The notes: a model not told the origin generated them from the sequence alone. 64,000 nt of DNA from Catajapyx aquilonaris (GCA_000934665.2 KZ538517.1:1-64000), one strand, 5' to 3'. Shown: positions 17,283 through 35,600, counted from the stretch's first letter. Made by a program: numbers and translations.

Positions 17283-20200
17283 CTACAGATCTTCATCCTG
17301 GATTCCTTCAAAGGCATCATTCTCAACCATTGGGTTATCACTTGAGCTGCTTTTTGAAGATGACTTCAAGCCCATATTTGACAATCGGCCTGTTAATTTT
17401 TTCATGGATGACTCTCTTGTTGGTGATTTCCCATCTTCAGTCTGCCACAGAGTAAATGAAATGAGTCATGGTAACACTGAAATAATGTTCCCTTACAGCA
17501 TTACAATCACAAATTAATAGAAGAGTAAATAGTGGTTGATAATCTTGATATCACATACTCTGCACTCTTGTCAACATTTCACTTTTGCAAACATGATGAC
17601 TGTGTACGTATATCACTTTCGTACAATACGAAACCTGTCGACAGGCAAGAGCCACCAAAATTGCATCAGACAAAGGAAAAATTTCCAATGAGCATCTAGA
17701 TCAGTCACGTTGAAGTAGAAATTAATGTGACTCACCCCACTACTTCCACTACTTGGAAAGTCACTTCCTACAGATTCCTTCCTGGCAACTGCAACATGAA
17801 AGGTGGAACCATCCCTCCTCATGTATGACCATGGTCCGCTGGGAAGTCGGTCATAGGTCTTCTTCAGCCCCACCCCACTCCTTTTGGACAGTAGCTCCTC
17901 TACCATTCCCTGCAGGCAGACAGACATGAGGATGGCCTGGTCACTTGCTATAGTGATCCATTCAAGGGTATCCTTCGCCATGAGATATTCAATTGACAGC
18001 TCAAGCCATGGCTCCTTGGCACTCCTGTTGCCTTCTGTCCCTTCATTTTGGCCCTAAAATTGTGAAGACATTTGCTGGTGTGACACAAAGTGGTAGTAGT
18101 CTACACAAAAATAGTGTCTGGTAATTTGAAACAACTCTAGTTCACATTTTCATCAAGATCCTGCAACAAAAGGTTCAACGAAATACAGCCTAACACTCTT
18201 CAACATTGAAGTGTAATTCACATCATTAAATTTAATAAATAGTATCAATATTACAATGCAAAATGATATTTATATATGATCAAAAATTCCAGGTTACCCC
18301 TATTTCAATTTATCAAATAAGGAAAGACTGCACATTTCTCACTGCAGCATTTATTAGCATTAGCATAATTTAGCAAGTCTGCTAGCCTCAGAATTGAATA
18401 AATGTACACTGATATAAAACCTTGATATGTCTGCTCTTTGATCATGTGACTCTCTCCTTGCAATAAAAAACTGTATAAAGATATAGCCAAACATAAAAAA
18501 CTCACATGCACAACTGTGATCCTCCAACACCTCATCCTGGTGACCCTGAAACTACCTTCCTTGCATTCACCATCCTGCTGAATACGGAAATTGAGCTCCT
18601 TATTACCAGCTGCTATCACAACCCTTGTGTTGGGAACTGGGTAGTCGCACAGGCATGGTCGGAATTGGACATAACCATAAAACTTGAGTGTTCTTGCCAA
18701 TCGCAGATACTGTAGAATAAATATATTCATAAGCACAAGGTAAAATGTCAGTCTCATTCATGATCAGGCCAGTTTTACTGTGCTAGCAAGTCCCGATTAT
18801 GCTAGAAGCTACCTATCCAAATTTGCAGAAGTGTGGGAAAACAGCTTTTCCTTTAATTCTGGTACATAATAGCTTATACACTGTACTCCCAATTATCCAG
18901 GTGGGGATTATCTGTGCATCACCAAAAAATAAAATTTAAAATAAGTGTCAGAAAAAAATGTCAATATGTCTCGGAAAGAAATATTCTCCTTCCAGAAGAC
19001 AAACTAAAAATCTATGATAAGTTTTATGATTTTGATTAACTTTACTTAGCAGCATGCACTATGTACACAATAGCTAATTAAAAACCTCTGAACAACTCAT
19101 TTTTACAGTTTTTAGGATCGTTTTCCAATTATACATCCAGTGACACCCATGCAATCATTAGCCCGGGTAATCAGGAGTACAGTGTGTTTCTTCTCTCAGG
19201 ACCTCCAACATCTCAGCACACAATTGCATGCTTAAAAATACTGGAACTCAAACCATGGGAAACAAACGCTGAGCATCTGGTTATTCCAGTTTCTTTTTGT
19301 ATTGATGCCCATTCTAACCTGGTGTGCATGCACTTTAGAATTGTGCATATGCATGTCACAATCTTTTTGTGAGTTTTTTGCGCATTTTATGTACTATTTT
19401 GTGCCTTTGCATGTGCTTTGTGACAGCAGGATCAAAATTTTAAAATATTTAACATCCTAAGAAGCCAGTGCAGAGTCTGAGTGCTTTCTGCTAGAAATAC
19501 TTCCTGTAATTTTCAGACAGGTGGAACTCTTTCATGTTCTGAGAGGCTCAGGGGAAGATGCATGGTGGGAAATCAAACATGGCATCTGGCGGTAATTCAC
19601 TCTTTCACCACCAGCCCTGCCTGCTGTCCACTCTACTCTCAATCCCAATGGCTTACTTCGTTGAATGCAATTTCCATAAGACAAAAAGTTGATTCCTTCT
19701 GACTTGAACAGAAAGGAAATTAAGGAAATAACAGCAATAGTGTAGGGCAGTTGTGATTGGCCTTGACAAATTTGCATCTAGGAGTTATGAACAGTATGAA
19801 ATAGAGCATGACATATGAATGGACTTGGATACTTCAAAAGGTAAAACATCAAACCTCTTTTTTGGAGCCCTTTGCCTGCAAAGACACCAGGTGTTGCCGT
19901 GTTTCATTTCCAGCCAGGATCCACCCATGCTGGAGATCTGCAACCATCTGGACATAGAGAAGGTTGAGTGCAACAGGATCTTCCAGCAAGTCCTCATCAT
20001 ATGAAGGATCCCAATAACTGTAAGCAGACAAATAATTATTACTTATCAACAATAATAACAAGTTTCAATTTTCTTGCAGAGCTCACCTTTTCCTCAGCAC
20101 AATTCTGTGGATACCTTGGAGGGATTTTTGAGATATGTAAGGAGATTCAAAGTCTTGTAATCGACGGACAACTGAAATGATAACAGTAAATACACGTCAC

Positions 20201-26414: not shown

Positions 26415-27400
26415 TTTCCCTTCCCTGGATAGAACGAGCAACCGGATGTGAAGGCGGAAGGACACGCAAAGGTCTACGCTTGTTGCCAGGTGCAGCCAGA
26501 CAGTGTCGCCATCTCGGGCGACATCACCGCCAGCTGCTGCTCATCCAAGGACCAGGCCAGGAGCAAGGCCATTGCCGCAAAAAACCAGCAGCATAAATAG
26601 AACAGGACCAATGAAGCATTTGCCCGACACTACCCGTAACTCCAAGGCCACTTAGGTATTACGTATAGCCCGCTTTAAAAAAGAAACCGTACTCGGTACA
26701 TAGGCGCTAGAATTGGGCGCGCTTTTTTTCCTCATCCATATTATAATGTGAAGGCCGTTAAGATCTCGTTGGTTGAGACATGGCATAAAAAAGAGTGGGC
26801 ACGTGAACACAGCTTTCTACCCTCCCAGCCAGATGTCACGTGCATAGAAAGCCACAAGCAGTCTGCCTTTTTTTGTGACGCGCGATCAGGTTTGGTTCAC
26901 GTGAACACGTCCTGATTCCGCCTTCCACTCCCCCATGGACACATACACAGTGTCTGTGTCACCCGCCCTAATCTCCAGACCAGACTTCATATATCTGCAG
27001 ATCCCAAAGTCCCCCTGTTGTTGTCAGTCACATTCCGGGTAGGGTAGTACTTGCCACGTACTACCTAGCACAAAGGGCATTGTTTCTTTGTGGTGCAAGT
27101 GCCAGGGAGGGGTACCCTCTTCTTTATTAGTCACTGCCCCATCCTCTCCCCCATTTCTGACTAGTGGGAGGGAGGCGTATAAATAGCCATAAAAACTGGG
27201 GTTTAAAAGCAGGGTTTGCCAGTGTCAGTGGGGCCCAGTTAGTGAGGGAATGGACCTGAAAGTGTTTGGTAGCTGTGCAACTTACATCGACTGCCTCAAG
27301 AGCCGCTCACGTGTCGGTCAGCTTCACCACACCTGGAAGTGGTTGCACCTCACACTCGACATACACAGCCACCTTGTCTGCCTCTCCGAGGCCGTCACGA
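26400..27400. promoter_or_regulatory. Putative bidirectional promoter UQCRB/LIPT1
   Basis: The start codons are divergent and 1.2 kb apart. CpG-rich region with a YY1-like GCCGCCATTTT (26407-26417) overlapping the UQCRB ATG, ETS-like CCGGATGT/GGCGGAAG at about 26442-26460, and CACGTG E-boxes at 26800, 26837, 26898 and 27308. Confidence 0.55.
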
Positions 27401-27618
27401 CTGCGGCGCACTAAAGTCCAGTGGAATTATTAAAGCGGCCCCCACAGTCAAAATAACCGACCAACTGCCAGCTTCTTGCAATATTTGCGAGGGGTTTTAT
27501 CATTGTTAGACATAACGAAAGACTAGTCAAATTTTTTTAAGAAAAGGGAGCTCTTCCCAGTTGCAAAACAAGAAAAAAAAGTTTCTTTGTGGTTCAAAGG
27601 AGGATTCAACTGTACAAG

Positions 27619-30600
27619 ATGTGGAGCATTTTGGCCATCGGGAAGCAGGCAGGGAGAGCTGCACGCCTCACTGTGCGGATGTGTGGGGTACGTATATTTG
27701 CGTCTTTCTGGGTTACACACTGAATTTGTCAAATGTTGAATTTGGAAAGTGTGTGCCATGACATTTCACCTATTTTAATATTGACAGCAAAGTCATTGGT
27801 TACTTAAGATCTGCTTATTCTACATCAGGTTGTGGTTCATGCCTGGCCAACTGGTCACTGCGTTTAATGTGAGTGTGTCTTTTGCACAATAGGTGACCTT
27901 TAGTAGCTATGGTCATTAGCATAATTGCCTCACCACATGGGCAGAATAACATAGATAAAAGCCCCATTTAGATAATGATGACTGGATTTTTCAAGCACAG
28001 AAATGGAATCCTGATCTATTGCGTCATTGACAATTGCCCTTTTAGCATTGTGAGGCGTATATCTATTTGCCTCCAGAAATAAGATTTGTTAGAAAATTGT
28101 GCAATGTTAATCAAGCCCATCTGGTAAAATACTGTGGAAGAAATTTATTGCAGTGATGATTTGTAAACTGCTTTGTATGAAGAAATTGTTGTTTCAGTAG
28201 TTGCAAACTTTTCAAGTCTTATTCTTTGGCCAACAGCTACTTGACATTTCCCTTCTACTTATGTTAAAGTTGATAGTGCAAGTGGTAATCACTTCTAGAG
28301 AATGTTTCAAGGAGCAATTTATAAACCTGCAAGAGATTAAAAAATTTATTAATTTAAATTAATCACTACCGGTACTGCATATCTGGAATTTCTTTGAGTA
28401 TTACTTGAGAGAGTGGATTTCACAGTGCCATGTACTGTTGTACAAGCACATGTCATAACCTCAGATTTTGCAAGCAGTGTTCCATGCATAAAGGCACACT
28501 TCAAGGACTGTTCAAGGTCATATTCAATGTCTTATTCCCAATAGGAATCAAAGGTCATGGCTCCAGCCATGTCCCTCAGCACATCTTCCCCAAAGGAGCC
28601 AGAGAAGTCTGTGTTTATCTCCCAGTCAGCAGACATTTTCACCAACCTGGCCCTGGAGGATTGGCTGTATCGTAACCTGGACTTCAGCAATCACAATGTG
28701 CTGCTGCTGTGGCGTAATGAGCCCTGTGTGGTGATTGGACGGCACCAGAACCCATGGGTAGAGGCCAACCTGCCCCTGCTCAAAGAGAGAGGGATTGCCC
28801 TGGCTAGGAGGAACAGTGGTGGAGGAACCGTCTACCATGATAGGGGAAACCTCAACTGCACCTTCTTCACTAATAGGTACTGTTTGACAATGGTTTCATC
28901 CAGTAAGAAGGAATGCAAAAAATACATGGATGTCAATAATGTCTTCGTTTTGCAGGGATGCATACAACCGACGCCAGAACCTGGAAATTGTATGCAATGC
29001 TCTGCATCGTGAGTGGGGATTGGCAGCAGAGATCAGCCCTAGGGAGGATGTCATGCTGCAAGGCTTTAAAGTATCCTTTATAAACAGAAGCCAAAACATA
29101 CACACCTACATATCAAAAAAGTGCAGATGCAGTTTATTTGGTGATGCTTAGTTCTTTTCCAAGAGGGAATAAAGTGGGTAAATAAGTACCGTACTAAAAG
29201 GGGTAGTCTGAGAAACTTTTGTTCTGTGCCAAAGTAGTTTCAATCCTGAGCAGCATCACAATGCAAAGTACAGACCGTAGGTATAGACACTCCACATTTA
29301 AAGACTTGTGAAAATGTTCTTTATGTTAAAAACTGGATGAATTTCTCATTCTCTGGCAGTGAAATAATGTTAATGTCTGATGACTTAACTCTGATAGCAA
29401 TGTCTTTCATCTGATATTCACTGGGTATTGCACAATTCAATCCGGATGAAATGTCAATTTTTGAGTTGATACTGTGATAAATGTACAGGCACCCGTGTAA
29501 GTCAGCTTTTCTTATCAAGGCATATCCTCCCGACAACTAAATCCCAAAACTTGTCAATTTTGAGCAGATAACATTACATGGACATTGAACGCATTTTTCA
29601 ACAGTGAATCCCTCATGAGAGTTCAGTTTCCTTATCTAATTACATTTGATATCCGGTTCTGCTTCCAAACTGGGGAAGAACGCGTATCACCATTGCACCG
29701 TCCTGGTCAATGCCAGCATGGCCTCTCTGAAAGACAGCTTGCATAATGACAAGGTGAGACATTGTTTGCGCTGAGTTAACAGGTGGTGGCAGACTTTGGA
29801 CTTGTTGTGGGGGATATGGGTTCACACAACAAAAGATTGAGAATTTATCTAATCAGGGTGTCTGCCACAATGCGGTTTTTTCAACTTTTGAGCAAGCAGG
29901 CTGGGTTGGCAAAGTTCAATTTGCAGGCCGGCTGGAGTAAAAATAGCCAAGGCTGTTGCCCTTGGGGAAGCGATTGCGTAAGGGACTGCTCATGCAATTA
30001 GAACGTGCTGGGCAGGTAACCAGGCATGATGATTACATGATCGCTGCACCCTCCTAGGAATAGGATTCCACGTGTAGTTATGACTAGATTTTAATAGCTG
30101 GAATGCAAAGTGTCATATTGAAAAGGAGTAATGGAACTTTTACTAGTGTTATGTAATGTTCTAAATTCTGGTATGAGACTTATTTTCCCCATTCATAATT
30201 TTGATGATAGTGGCATTGTAACCGACTGCTTTTATTGAGACAATCAATCTGGCAATGGTCATGATTTTGAACAGTAAATTTATGTAAGCAATTTTATTCA
30301 CTTTCAAGGCTGGCATTGAGAGCAAGGCCACAGCAAGCGTAGGTTCTCCAGTAAAGAACCTCAAAGAAGCACTTCCAGCTGTGTCTGTGGAGAAAGCCGT
30401 GGCAGCCATAGGCTGGGAGTATCTTCGTACCGACCCAAAAGGAACGGATGGCGGGAAGGAACACATCTCAAAGCAGCGTGGGTTCAAGATGATCAATCCC
30501 ACTGACAGCTGGTTTCCGGGTATGTGGAATGCACCCGAAAAGTTGATGGCTCAAAGTAACCAGTGATCAGATTACTACCTGATTTTTCTTATGATTTTTA

Positions 30601-32618
30601 CACCATTTCATTTTTCTTATTGTGACAATAAAGGCCCAGATATTTTAGCCTGTACTTGTTTTTTGCTTTTTTTATGTGATCCCCCTGGAGGACCTTGGTT
30701 GCAAAATGAGATGTATCATTTCAAGGTATAACTTTGAGAACAGGAGCTTGCAATATGCTTGTTCAGTTTGGGCACTTGAATGATGCACCATTTAAAGTGC
30801 ACTGCCCTTTTTTTGAAAAGTCTGATTTTACAACTATGACCACCGGGCATTATTTTCTCTCTGCGAGGAATTGCAGAAGCGATATTGGTAGCATTTTTTT
30901 TCGGTGTTGAAAAAATCCCTTGGGTGTCTTGGAATTAGCCTTCAGTAGTGGCAAACAGTGTTATGATGGCCCCAAGTTTGCCTTTGTCTGGGATTCCATA
31001 AGTAAATGAATCCGGTGTAATCTGCTTATCATTGGTGTAATAATAGGGGATTGATAAGGCACGAGTAAACAGGGATTGAACTTTAGTTGTAGAGTACAAA
31101 GTGTTAAATTTTTTGTGAGAATGAGGCCAGCATCACCTCAAAATGTAAGTTCAGGTCAATATATTGCTTGGGCTTCCCTTAGGAACAAGTCCTTATGGCC
31201 ATTGCACCCCACTCATGATATTTCAAAGGTCATGCGATAATCTTCCGGAAAATGCTACCGTCATTGACACTTCTGACCCTGGCTGTTTCCCTCTTAATCC
31301 TACTGATTGGCCAATCATGCATTTAGTGCATGTCATACTTTGCCAGAACTTTTGGAGGCACTCCAAACTGCATTCCTTAGTGCTTGACTTCTTTGAAATA
31401 ACTCCTGCTACTAATCACCTGAGAGAAATTAGGAAATCTTTGCAAGTATCCACTGGTTTACACAAGCATTTGTGGTGCGCACAAGGTTTTACTTCCAGAT
31501 TATGGTTGGGAAATTAGTGGAAGGAATCCAAGTTCATTTGGGATTATCTGGCTCTCTGTCACATGTGAATTGCTATGCAGTTAATCTTTCTGTTATGTAG
31601 GTCATAGATAAACAAAACAATCTATTGGTTCATCAAAAGAGATCATGTGAAGTCTGGCAATTTGCCACAATTTCAGCTAAAGGCATTACAAAATATGCAT
31701 TACTGTTAATGTCATCTGGTTTGTCACAGAGAGAGATGACGACAATTGGCAAATTGTCAGCACACCAAGTAAACTGTCATTACATGCTCTACTCTGTGAT
31801 AGCATGGTATGTTCATAGATGGGTATGATATAGAAATGAAGGAGTGCAGGAGTTTCTCTTACTCAGTTCGTCAATTTAATAATTCAATAAATTGCCTACA
31901 TGACCTACCATTACATAACTTCTGATATCTATTTGCCTAACCTCATGTCATTTTTATTCCACATTTTTCATATCATTGGTCCTTATAAGTTACCAATCAT
32001 ACATTCTTGTTCAAGATCAGTACAAACTGTGCTAATGATTAATGCTGATAATCAACAGGACTGGACAAGCTGAATGAGGAGTTCCAGAGCTGGGGATGGA
32101 TATTTGGAAAGACTCCAAAGTTCACCATCACACGCTCCTTCTTGATTCCTCAAGAATTGATTGGCGATCAGAAGGTCAACAATGGTAGCAGGGAGCTAAC
32201 CATACAACTGCAGGTAAATTTTATGTACCTGAGAACTACTTGGCACTATGTGGCCTCTATAACTCCTTGTGTTGTGATTTCAACAAATTCAATCAGTACA
32301 CCTTTGAAAAATATTACATGCATAGATAATTTTTTTCCCCATTATGTGTGTATTACCTGGTGCTGATGTGACATTCTCATGTAGGTGTACCATGGACTGG
32401 TAGAGGACGTATGCTTTCGGATCCCTCCTGAGTTTGTGGGAGGATTGGTTGACATCAAGGGGCAGCTTGACATGGTGGAGCCACTAAAAGGGAAGAGATT
32501 TTCAGAAGAGGTAGTCAACCTGTTCGAGGATCTGTTGGTCAACCAGCAGCCTCAGGAGAAGCGCGAGAAGAATCAGTTTGTGGCCAATTGCATGAAAAAA
32601 GTGGTCCAGTCAGTCTGA
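27619..32618 (+). CDS. LIPT1: Mitochondrial lipoyltransferase 1, about 406 aa, 7 coding exons
   Basis: Exons 27619-27687 (MWSILAIGKQAGRAARLTVRMCG, transit-peptide-like, less certain), 28545-28876, 28956-29070, 29649-29753, 30309-30519, 32059-32213, 32385-32618 (1221 nt). Motifs NLALEDWLY, VVIGRHQNPW, RRNSGGGTVYHDRGNLN, K|ISGSASK...AYHHCTVL, SKATASV and WIFGKTPKF. Confidence 0.93.
29071..29648 (+). other. U12-type (minor spliceosome) intron of LIPT1 with non-canonical 3' end
   Basis: Donor GTATCCTTT (29071-29079); branch-like TTTCCTTATC (29627-29636); the conserved K|ISG junction requires the intron to end in TG at 29647-29648 (or AT at 29644-29645). Confidence 0.8.
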
Positions 32619-35600
32619 CAGAGACCCTGTTAAGGGCTTGATGCCTGTTTCTTTTGCTACTTTTTGTTAACTGGGAGTGCTTCCTAAACATGCTAACATG
32701 GTGGAAAGACTTAAGAAATTAGGGGCAAGTAAGATATACGAAAACATTACTTTTTTAGCACATTGGGGAAAAAATCATACCAGTGAAATATGTACAAGTG
32801 AATCTCGGAGTAAGTGTTTGCACAATTTTTGTCTTCAAATCATTGCAATGGTATATTTAGAAAATAAGATTTGACCCAGCTTTTGTATTGTACCAGTGAA
32901 ATAATTTGTATTTGCTATATAGTGGTGCTTCATATGAGTATACAAGTGGCTTGAGGTCAATAAAGGATATATTTACTAATTATTCCATCATTTGGTTGGT
33001 GTAATTGGAAATGGGCAGCAACATTATGACATTTAATTTTCCAGCGAATCTTTGTCAAGGTGAGTGGTTGGAGTTTCCGCACTTCTTGTCATTTAAGGAA
33101 GTGTCAGTACTATTGATGTGCTCACTGGAGGGTGGCACTATATTTATGTAAGAAGTTATCCCCAGTGTATTCCTGTGCCACCAACGGACTAACCAGTATG
33201 AGTTGTCCATCATCTGACAATTCAAGTCTTACATGCACTTGTGATGGAGAGTAGAGCAAATAAAACAGCTATAACTGTTAGCATTATGTTCACAAGTGAT
33301 ATCAAAATGGAACAGATAAGTACAGGAATACCTCCTCCAGGTTTCACAACTGGACTGAATTTTATGGAATTGGGATTTATAAGGTTCATAATGTTAGTAG
33401 ATATGAATGTACTGTATAATTATGTATACTGTCTCATGCTGAGATTGTTGATTTAGGTGCAATAGCAATGTGTACAGTACATGACAATCTGATATAATCT
33501 AGAAGTCATCACTGTTAGCCCCTTTCCCTTTCTGGTCCACGCAGTACTTTATGTAGCAATGGAATTGGAGGCCTAGTAAGTGCAACTTCAGTGAAAATTA
33601 TTACAAGTAGCTATGTACTGTACACAATGGAATGCTGCACACTCATGTAACAAGTGTATACTGGAGCACATACTGTATTTGTGGGACATCAGGAACTTAG
33701 AGCAAAATTCATTCCCCCCCATAACTACCTATGAAAATCTGCATCTAAGGTATCTCATGTGATGGAAAATGACATTTTCTGCCCTGGCTTTTCACTTGTG
33801 AAGCATTTCCAATACCTAAAATGATAAGGTTGTGCACTTCAAGTTAGGAGTGCAAGACCTACTTCTTGTAAGGCAACTGATTCCATGTATTGTACTGTAC
33901 TGTATTATACATGGAAGGGAAGAAGGAGCAGGATCATAACTACTAGGCCTACTACCCAGGGTTGCATATTAATTTTTGATTTATGCAATACAGTCTAATA
34001 ATGCTCTACAGTTTGGAGCAATGGTCCAAACGCCTGATGTCTCCCTGTCTGCCTTGGGTTCAACCCTGCTATATAGTGCTAGCTTGACCAAACTGTTATG
34101 ATTTTGTTAATAGCCTGCAACAACTTGTAAAGGCTTGTATTGTCCAGGGAGCTATGCAATATCGCGCCATCTTATCTGTTTATTCAACTATTGACATCCT
34201 GTAATTTACTCTTTTTTTTGGTACAATGCCCATTTATGGGGGGAGGGGGGGGGGGAGTTCTTGTAACAGGACGAACATTTTGCGCCCATTGGGCTATATA
34301 GAGGAACCACTCTGACCGTGAGAGTCAGTGGTAGTGCATTTGGAGGGCAAAAGAAAAATATAGTTTATACACTTTGTACCGTATACGCAGGCATCAACTG
34401 GAAAGTGATCTCCGTCTCATTTTTACAAATATGCAAATTTTGCTTAGACACGTACCGGTAATTCAAATAGGCACCGCGACTGAGGTCATCGGGGTATTGT
34501 CTCATCCACGCGTTGACGAAGTAAATGAACTCATATCAGAACCATGTTGTTTACTGGTTCCAGACAATCATGATGGCACCATTCCGATGATGGCTATAGC
34601 TAATCATCAGAGCAGAGCGCTTCCAGACGCACAGATTTCATTGCATATAATATAGCTATTTTGGCATGTACATGATGTATGTAGTACCGAAAGTGACCTC
34701 CAAAATAAATTACACAATGCCCGATTGAATTTGACCAAAATGTGACTCCGATTGTTCTGCATTTCAGATCATTTCATGTAACACGCTGTACCCCACGCAG
34801 ATATACGTAAGATACTCATCATCTCCATATTTGGCATTTGAATTCCACGCCGCTTCTCAGAAACCAATGAAGCTTAGAAGAATGTGCTGACTTCATAAGA
34901 TCGTATTTCAAGGCCTTCGGGGTCAGAGACGTCTATTGTTCCCGCCCTACGCGTAGATCCTGAACAAGCTTGGACACTTGGACATGTCTATAAATAATCC
35001 CGTTTGCATATAATGATTCATCGTTGTTTACTTCACAGCACTCACATTTCACTTACAGCTAGCCTAATGCGCAGTTAATTAGGATAGTCGATACTCTGAG
35101 CGTCATCTCTAAACATTAACTCGCCTTGCATAAGAATGGTTGTGGTGATGCCCATATTTTTTAAAGCATAAACATGCGTAGTAAACAGTTTTAAACTGTT
35201 TATTCTAACCCACACAGTTTTTGTTGTCTGTATTTTTTATATACTGTATACTGTAATGGTTGCAGTATTGATATATACAGTATAATATAACACTAAGGGT
35301 TAACCTCTTGGACTACTTTCGAAGCCTGACTTTCGGTTAACACTAATATTTTTAAATTGCTTAAATATTAGAGGCCCTGATTTGCAAACCAATCACACTC
35401 ACATTTTCGCGAAAATTGAATTAGGCATTACACAAGAAAGTCATCCAAGCGTGTTTTACAATCGTTAAATCATATTTCCGCTAGGGCAATTAGAGTCCCC
35501 TATATAAATGTTTGTAAAAAAAAAATAGAGATCCCATAAGAGATACCTCTTCAACTACTCATATCTCAAAATCATTCTATTGTGACTGATCGTTCTGCTT

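Follow-up and report, generated by a model that had tools for sequence, protein, structure and literature searches.

A probable minor-spliceosome intron with GT-AT termini at the lysine motif of LIPT1 in Catajapyx aquilonaris

Results

A LIPT1 gene with one non-canonical intron

The DNA analysed here is a stretch of 64,000 nucleotides (nt) from Catajapyx aquilonaris (GCA_000934665.2 KZ538517.1:1-64000), hereafter referred to as the window. Between 27.6 and 32.6 kb, its plus strand carries a seven-exon gene for lipoyltransferase 1 (LIPT1). Five of the six introns within the coding sequence have GT-AG termini, and only the one at 29071-29645 departs from them; this one very likely belongs to the rare GT-AT subtype of minor-spliceosome (U12-type) introns. 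When the seven exons are joined using the junction 29070^29646, they yield a coding sequence of 1224 nt and 407 codons with one terminal stop.

Exon 1 matches the Pfam profile LplA-B_cat (PF21948; 5e-31, 108.6 bits against a cut-off of 27), and it is on this profile match that we base the family assignment of the gene. In a protein search, the best 120 of 1409 matches were lipoyltransferases, with identities of at most 83%; all named ones came from hexapods, and the top named matches were arthropod lipoyltransferase 1, which together with the profile match makes the gene a LIPT1 orthologue. A search of the protein collection for a LIPT1 of this species or of a close relative returned three distant matches with an exon-4 query and no candidate with a 41-residue exon-2 reference. 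Human LIPT1 has a single coding exon.

Spliced contigs place the 3′ end at 29645

The stretch is contained in five sequencing runs, and the contigs of four of them (X1, X3, X4 and X5) were examined. X1, X3 and X4 are DNA runs of one sample, which may be the assembly's own source, while X5 stems from another sample and another study; its run type is not on record. X5 contigs skip three introns at their exact borders, and their depth is 119-214 in exons compared to 0-11.5 in introns, so that X5 behaves as RNA. In record 4 of this run (1417 nt, depth 118.9), 29070 is followed directly by 29646 ('skips 575, GT..AT, both 0'), leaving the position of the cut unambiguous. Record 6 (772 nt, depth 214.2) starts exactly at 29646, is unbranched and crosses the next intron, and record 5 (depth 11.5) represents the unspliced form over 29234-29675, with no letter differing from the window. 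All three records share the 30 letters 29646-29675; a cut before 29646 would produce just such a fork in a 31-letter word graph, which lends support to that border.

The initial annotation, made from the sequence alone, had proposed a non-AG intron boundary at this site with two options. Its second option, GT-AT, agrees with the sole spliced contig, whereas the preferred GT-TG, with an intron end at 29648, does not. The accompanying argument that motif conservation requires the exon to start at 29649 was reasonable, but the messenger RNA (mRNA) contig does not follow it and starts the exon at 29646. We found no 29070^29649 joint in the contigs of the four runs, in which rare variants are dropped. 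A T/A assembly error at 29647, which had been named as something to check, fails as an explanation, since T 29647 stands in both samples; it is identical, as is AT 29644-29645, in X1, X3, X4 and the unspliced X5 contig. The claim that the intron splits the K|ISG motif was borne out, with AAA ending at 29070 and ISG following the leucine of the downstream exon.

The depth of X5 is 11.5 over 29234-29675 in the U12-type intron and 3.8 over 29778-30025 in the next intron, compared to 119-214 in exons; since contig depths cannot be ranked, these values are not evidence of slower minor-intron removal.

The first four coding junctions of the gene are based on spliced contigs and the last two on homology and reading frame. 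The intron, its elements and the coding exons, all on the plus strand, are as follows.

29071..29645, plus strand: putative U12-type intron, 575 nt, GT-AT termini; X5 record 4 joint 29070>29646
29071..29079, plus strand: U12-type 5′ splice site GTATCCTTT; from the sequence and orthologous donors in other loci
29626..29637, plus strand: U12-type branch-point sequence GTTTCCTTATCT, form with A at position 9, presumed branch A 29634; after the motif description in excerpts of PMC1557818
29644..29645, plus strand: 3′ terminal dinucleotide AT, used; X5 joint, and record 6 starts exactly at 29646
29646..29648, plus strand: TTG, extra Leu codon, the last two bases of which are the TG proposed earlier as acceptor; X5, with no contig using TG; same AAA TTG ATT in contig L001 of another species
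27619..27687, plus strand: first coding exon piece, 23 codons of basic N-terminal presequence, ATG 27619; GTACGT donor at 27688; a loose end of X5 record 4 matches 27657-27686 and joins at about 28545; frame open into the next exon
28545..28876, plus strand: coding exon, N-terminal part of LplA-B_cat; X5 contig piece 28544-28874, Pfam, frame
28956..29070, plus strand: coding exon ending in Q-G-F-K, phase 0, the last codon AAA encoding the family's invariant Lys; X5 joint 28874>28954, GT..AG
29646..29753, plus strand: coding exon L-ISGSASKLGKNAYHHCTVLV..., GTGAGA donor at 29754; X5 piece 29646-29749 with joint to 30305, Pfam
30309..30519, plus strand: coding exon; X5 contigs, homology, frame
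32059..32213, plus strand: coding exon; homology and frame
32385..32618, plus strand: last coding exon, TGA 32616-32618; homology and frame

ATG 28557, which had been regarded as the apparent start, is internal instead, as the spliced contig extends upstream into the exon ending at 27687. The upstream ATG 27619 extends the protein by 27 residues, a basic, presequence-like N-terminus.

U12-type splice signals with a non-AG 3′ end

The upstream exon ends with GGC TTT AAA at 29070 in phase 0, encoding G-F-K, and is directly followed by GTATCCTTT at 29071-29079, which agrees with the U12 consensus RTATCCTT(T) in 9 of 9 bases from intron position +1; the canonical U12 donor claimed by the initial annotation is thus in place. 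The branch motif that it had described upstream of the acceptor is likewise present, as TTTCCTTATC at 29627-29636, with 29634 as the sole A of the motif. In excerpts of PMC1557818, the U12 branch consensus is given as about TTTTCCTT, with A at position 9 or 10 followed by pyrimidines; by this motif description, the region 29626-29637, which reads GTTTCCTT-A-T-CT, matches the form with A at position 9. From A 29634 to the last intron base, 29645, the distance is 11 nt. U12-type introns have an optimum branch-to-3′ distance of 11-13 nt, lack a pyrimidine tract and are error-prone in the choice of their 3′ site, as stated in the available part of PMC3584512.

Also in agreement with the earlier description, there is no polypyrimidine tract before the 3′ end: the stretch between branch motif and exon, TCTAATTACAT, is not pyrimidine-rich, and the only pyrimidine run in the last 25 nt of the intron, GTTCAGTTTCCTTATCTAATTACAT, is the branch motif itself. 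Nor could the nearby AGs serve as acceptors, as had been noted, with those ending at 29619 and 29626 shifting the frame and the one ending at 29621 being in frame but meeting TAA at 29637-29639. Use of AC at 29642-29643 would give ATT TGA. The AT at 29644-29645 keeps the frame at the expense of an added Leu, as predicted, and it is the one used by the spliced contig; read from 29640, the frame gives L-H-L-I-S-G-S-A-S-K. Hence, the description of U12-type signals combined with a non-AG 3′ end held on each count, from the full 5′ consensus and the branch motif to the missing pyrimidine tract and the AT end.

The frequency of these motifs across the 64 kb is not beyond chance: GTATCCTTT occurs once against 0.63 expected, with at least one copy in 51 of 100 shuffles, RTATCCTT four times against 4.2, and TTCCTTAY six times against 5.2. 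What is beyond chance is their placement: a coding exon ends exactly where the donor begins, and the used 3′ end follows the branch motif by 11 nt. The other RTATCCTT sites were taken as chance occurrences, those at 17968 (plus strand) and 51744 (minus strand) in view of no coding exon ending there on the matching strand, and the one at 32963 (minus strand) in view of its position on the opposite strand downstream of the LIPT1 stop codon. A further candidate was an AT-AC intron on the minus strand, an artefact warned of in the excerpted text of PMC4528330; it was rejected because the minus strand begins with ATGTAATT and not with ATATCC. An Rfam scan of the 64-kb window gave no family match.

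An extra leucine next to the invariant lysine

The spliced mRNA joins AAA to TTG ATA TCC and thereby encodes GFK-L-ISGSASK. In the family, the invariant Lys is expected directly before [IV]-[SAC]-G-[ST]-A, while the mRNA reads K-L-I-S-G-S-A. The displaced Lys is a departure from a near-invariant family spacing, in a protein whose assignment to LplA still rests on the profile. We take the invariant Lys to be catalytic, like Lys133 of E. coli LplA; the passages of PMC7186572 and PMC7253636 did not state so.

The same codon is found in L001, a 1435-nt contig ending in eight A's, which encodes a full 383-residue LIPT1 (LplA-B_cat, 173 bits). It reads AAA TTG ATT, that is K-L-I, and shares 64% identity across 251 residues with the spliced product of the window, the alignment being ungapped at the junction. 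As both the X5 contigs and L001 carry the TTG, two species well apart from each other have the Leu form as their assembled transcript.

An old intron position with differing splice types

Comparison of the intron position across relatives, a step proposed by the initial annotation, was made by scanning metagenome contigs with exon 1, where 336 loci matched and 80 were kept. In nine of the 80 (L004, L005-L011 and L013), the orthologous position has a Lys codon with GTATCCTT directly after it (AAA|GTATCCTT); of these, L005-L011 and L013 are 74-78% identical to Periplaneta LIPT1 over 185 residues. Six further loci (L018, L019, L021, L046, L061 and L063) have U2-like donors there. Because U12-type and U2-like donors share the position, the intron position is old, with its type differing between lineages. 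Among proteins with a locatable exon-2 end, 26 of 255 have V-S-F after the Lys, which fits GTA TCC TTY, though Ser could also be AGY.

In the four of the nine U12-donor loci that have both intron ends in view, the intron has a U12-type branch site and an AG end. The intron of L004 ends in ACCTTAAC followed by 12 nt, closing in AG. Those of L007, L010 and L011 end in TCCTTGAC followed by CAGCAG, and their AGs are spaced from the branch A by 11 and 14 nt, just as are AT (11 nt) and TG (14 nt) in the window. This matching spacing suggests that an ancestral AG pair may have decayed in the lineage of the window.

The junction is irregular elsewhere, too. At the tandem CAGCAG end (L007:3887-3931, L010:5256-5300 and L011:5254-5298), use of the upstream AG would add a Gln, and a gene model of Orchesella (P0109) reads K-Q-ISG. 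Contigs of other species that resemble complementary DNA contain extra bases between the Lys codon and ATA TC, five (TTCAG) in L017:505-570 and one (G) in L033:570-633. These insertions split otherwise intact LIPT1 reading frames into two and may reflect either slips in assembly or the use of alternative 3′ splice sites. Further irregular gene models at the junction include one from Periplaneta reading K-VRGQQ-ISG, one from Spodoptera reading K-VSF...K-VSG, and one from Eumeta without the Lys. The expectation of the initial annotation that predictors would mis-annotate this junction is reflected in models of other species that are wrong there (P0109, P0112, P0013 and P0101).

A conserved upstream open reading frame

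The LIPT1 leader contains an upstream open reading frame (uORF) of 54 codons at 27250-27414 (plus strand) in the window, about 200 nt before the LIPT1 ATG. Its peptide core, LH[HQ]TWKWLH..T...H..LV, was found by tblastn upstream of LIPT1 exon 1 in 15 of the 80 loci. Between the window and L001, the peptides are 76% identical over 33 residues, and the DNA alignment exhibits synonymous codon changes; in L001, 2 nt separate the uORF stop codon from the LIPT1 ATG that follows. The peptide has no Pfam match, and a literature search found no paper pairing 'uORF' with 'lipoyltransferase'. This element resembles either a bicistronic leader or a uORF with a conserved peptide.

Discussion

The assignment of the 29071-29645 intron to the U12 type draws on its rigid 5′ site, a branch motif near the 3′ end, the lack of a pyrimidine tract and its removal at exactly these borders in one RNA-like contig (with a 30-letter side), and the GT-AT subtype follows from GT and AT termini combined with U12-type 5′ and branch sites. 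Table 2 of PMC1557818 lists 66 non-canonical U12-type introns, 7 of which are GT-AT; the available sections of that paper also describe that such introns can splice productively, and GT-AT is listed among animal minor-intron termini in the accessible part of bioRxiv 10.1101/2022.09.24.509304. The subtype is thus already known and the LIPT1 intron is a further example of it; the curiosity lies in its effect on the protein. A literature search found no paper pairing 'LIPT1' with 'minor intron', with the supplementary tables of minor-intron catalogues lying outside this search.

On this assignment, removal of the intron would depend on the minor spliceosome, a dependence backed only indirectly by the U12-type donors of the nine orthologous loci. 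U11, and later U6atac, would recognise the rigid 5′ site GTATCCTTT, and U12 would pair with TTTCCTTATC, with A 29634 as the presumed branch point. The 3′ cut would then be set by the distance from the branch and not by an AG, the first acceptable dinucleotide being the AT 11 nt downstream. The lineage of the window would have lost the AG that orthologous introns retained, and the cut would fall after AT because no AG is left at the right distance. The cost would be one Leu between the invariant Lys and the ISG strand, possibly tolerated, for example via a β-bulge, in what may be the working enzyme.

Several points weigh against this interpretation. The junction comes from a single RNA-like run, in the form of contigs and with the run type not on record; the 3′ side of record 4 comprises 30 letters, one short of the 31-letter bridging rule, and contigs lose rare variants, so that they give no share for a TG-spliced mRNA. 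With motif position 10, and not the A at position 9, as the starting point, the branch-to-end distance is 10 nt for AT and 13 nt for TG, so that distance alone cannot choose between the two. A close relative of L001, P0134, which is 81% identical to it and 67% identical to the window, reads GFK-ISG without the Leu. Of 149 cluster representatives found with L001 (among the best 150 listed), the motif could be located in 105, and K directly precedes [IV]SG in 102 of these, while the other three resemble intron read-through. The same arrangement is seen in 178 of the 255 proteins with a locatable exon-2 end, the rest of which mostly run into the intron. Moreover, in a HMMER alignment, the Leu of L001 is placed, ungapped, under the Lys of the bovine lipoyltransferase 2e5a; against the ligase 8cri, a one-residue gap is opened instead.

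A competing explanation would be that TG 29647-29648 is used as well, with the K-ISG mRNA supplying the active enzyme and the abundant +Leu mRNA arising as a by-product, of little or no activity, when the U12-type 3′ site is chosen imprecisely. Such imprecision would be in line with the error-prone 3′ site selection described in PMC3584512 (excerpt), and GT-TG does occur among non-canonical U12-type introns, in 1 of the 66 listed in PMC1557818 (available part). The conserved K-[IV]SG spacing (102 of 105 relatives) and the Leu-free P0134 speak for it, as do the two AGs 3 nt apart in the Periplaneta-like loci, spaced like AT and TG, the K-Q-ISG of the Orchesella model and the extra bases exactly at the junction in L017 (+5 nt) and L033 (+1 nt). 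In addition, both Leu-bearing species use TTG, so that the TG is kept in place. However, no contig has the 29070^29649 joint and record 6 is unbranched from 29646, a rare isoform being beyond the reach of contigs, and a +Leu form that is the assembled one in two species only 64% identical fits poorly with a waste product. We regard this explanation as unlikely.

It is far less probable that the major (U2-type) spliceosome removes the intron as a non-canonical GT-AT intron. U2-dependent introns with GT-AT and GT-TG ends do exist: Table 3 of PMC4528330 (excerpt) counts 14 GT-AT and 23 GT-TG introns in the FlyBase annotation, and the available part of PMC1557818 names human-mouse conserved U2-type GT-AT and GT-TG introns. 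Yet all 14 FlyBase GT-AT splices have a similar alternative splice, mostly a canonical one (PMC4528330, same excerpt), whereas the AGs near the LIPT1 acceptor are out of frame or lead into a stop. The 5′ site also fits the U12 consensus completely, the 3′ end lies 11 nt beyond a U12-type branch motif and lacks a pyrimidine tract, and orthologous introns retain U12-type donor and branch site. Finally, an artefact, whether a chimeric RNA contig or an assembly error at 29647 behind which lies a normal U12 intron with GT-AG ends, would gain some room from the possible lack of independence of X1, X3 and X4, but is extremely improbable given that X5 comes from another sample and study and has the same letters in its unspliced contig over 29234-29675, that three X5 contigs meet consistently at 29646, and that L001, from another species, has the same extra codon.

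The closest known counterparts of this GT-AT U12-type intron are those of DEADC1 and SLC24A6, which show human-mouse conservation (Tables 2-3 of PMC1557818, available part). They share with it a GT-starting U12 5′ site, a close branch motif, a terminal AT and a transcript-backed junction. Unlike them, the LIPT1 intron is from an invertebrate, its used 3′ site adds a codon within the catalytic motif, and, because the orthologous introns seen in other organisms end in AG, it looks like a lineage-specific subtype switch. There is also a likeness to tandem 3′ sites 3 nt apart (NAGNAG-type) and to U2-type TG 3′ sites (PMC2374985 and PMC4528330): here, too, two candidates, AT and TG, lie 3 nt apart and give products differing by one residue, and CAGCAG takes their place in the Periplaneta-like loci. 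In the window, in contrast, the signals are of the U12 type, neither site is an AG, and the contigs use the upstream site only. At the protein level, the gene resembles LIPT1 and LplA (bovine 2e5a; E. coli LplA, 1x2g) in the shared LplA-B_cat match, with E = 3.5e-66 for L001 against 2e5a, and in the presence of the RRNSGGG, ISG[ST]A and YHHCT blocks, but its Lys is one place further from [IV]SG, with the Leu in between.

A broader idea, which we put forward as an improbable one, is that among arthropod LIPT1 genes this old U12-type intron does not have a fixed 3′ end, which instead varies by a few bases just at the codon that follows the invariant Lys. Possible instances are AT and TG in the window, CAGCAG in the Periplaneta-like loci, K-Q-ISG in Orchesella, the +5 and +1 nt contigs, and the +Leu of L001 that is missing from P0134. 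Either the choice of the 3′ site would then set the amount of active lipoyltransferase, or the LplA fold would work with its Lys displaced by one residue, which, if true, would be a first for the family.

For gene annotation, the intron means that a correct model of this gene is out of reach of predictors demanding an AG, and errors at the same junction can be seen in models of other species. With its three states, U12-type GT-AG, U12-type GT-AT and U2-type, a single intron position offers a compact case both of how subtypes switch and of conversion from U12 to U2. Should the +Leu protein be the working enzyme, the LplA fold would allow more freedom in the distance from the Lys to the ISG strand than one would expect from how well this distance is conserved. 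Otherwise, the bulk of LIPT1 mRNA in this organism would encode a crippled enzyme, and lipoylation would depend on a rare splice choice.

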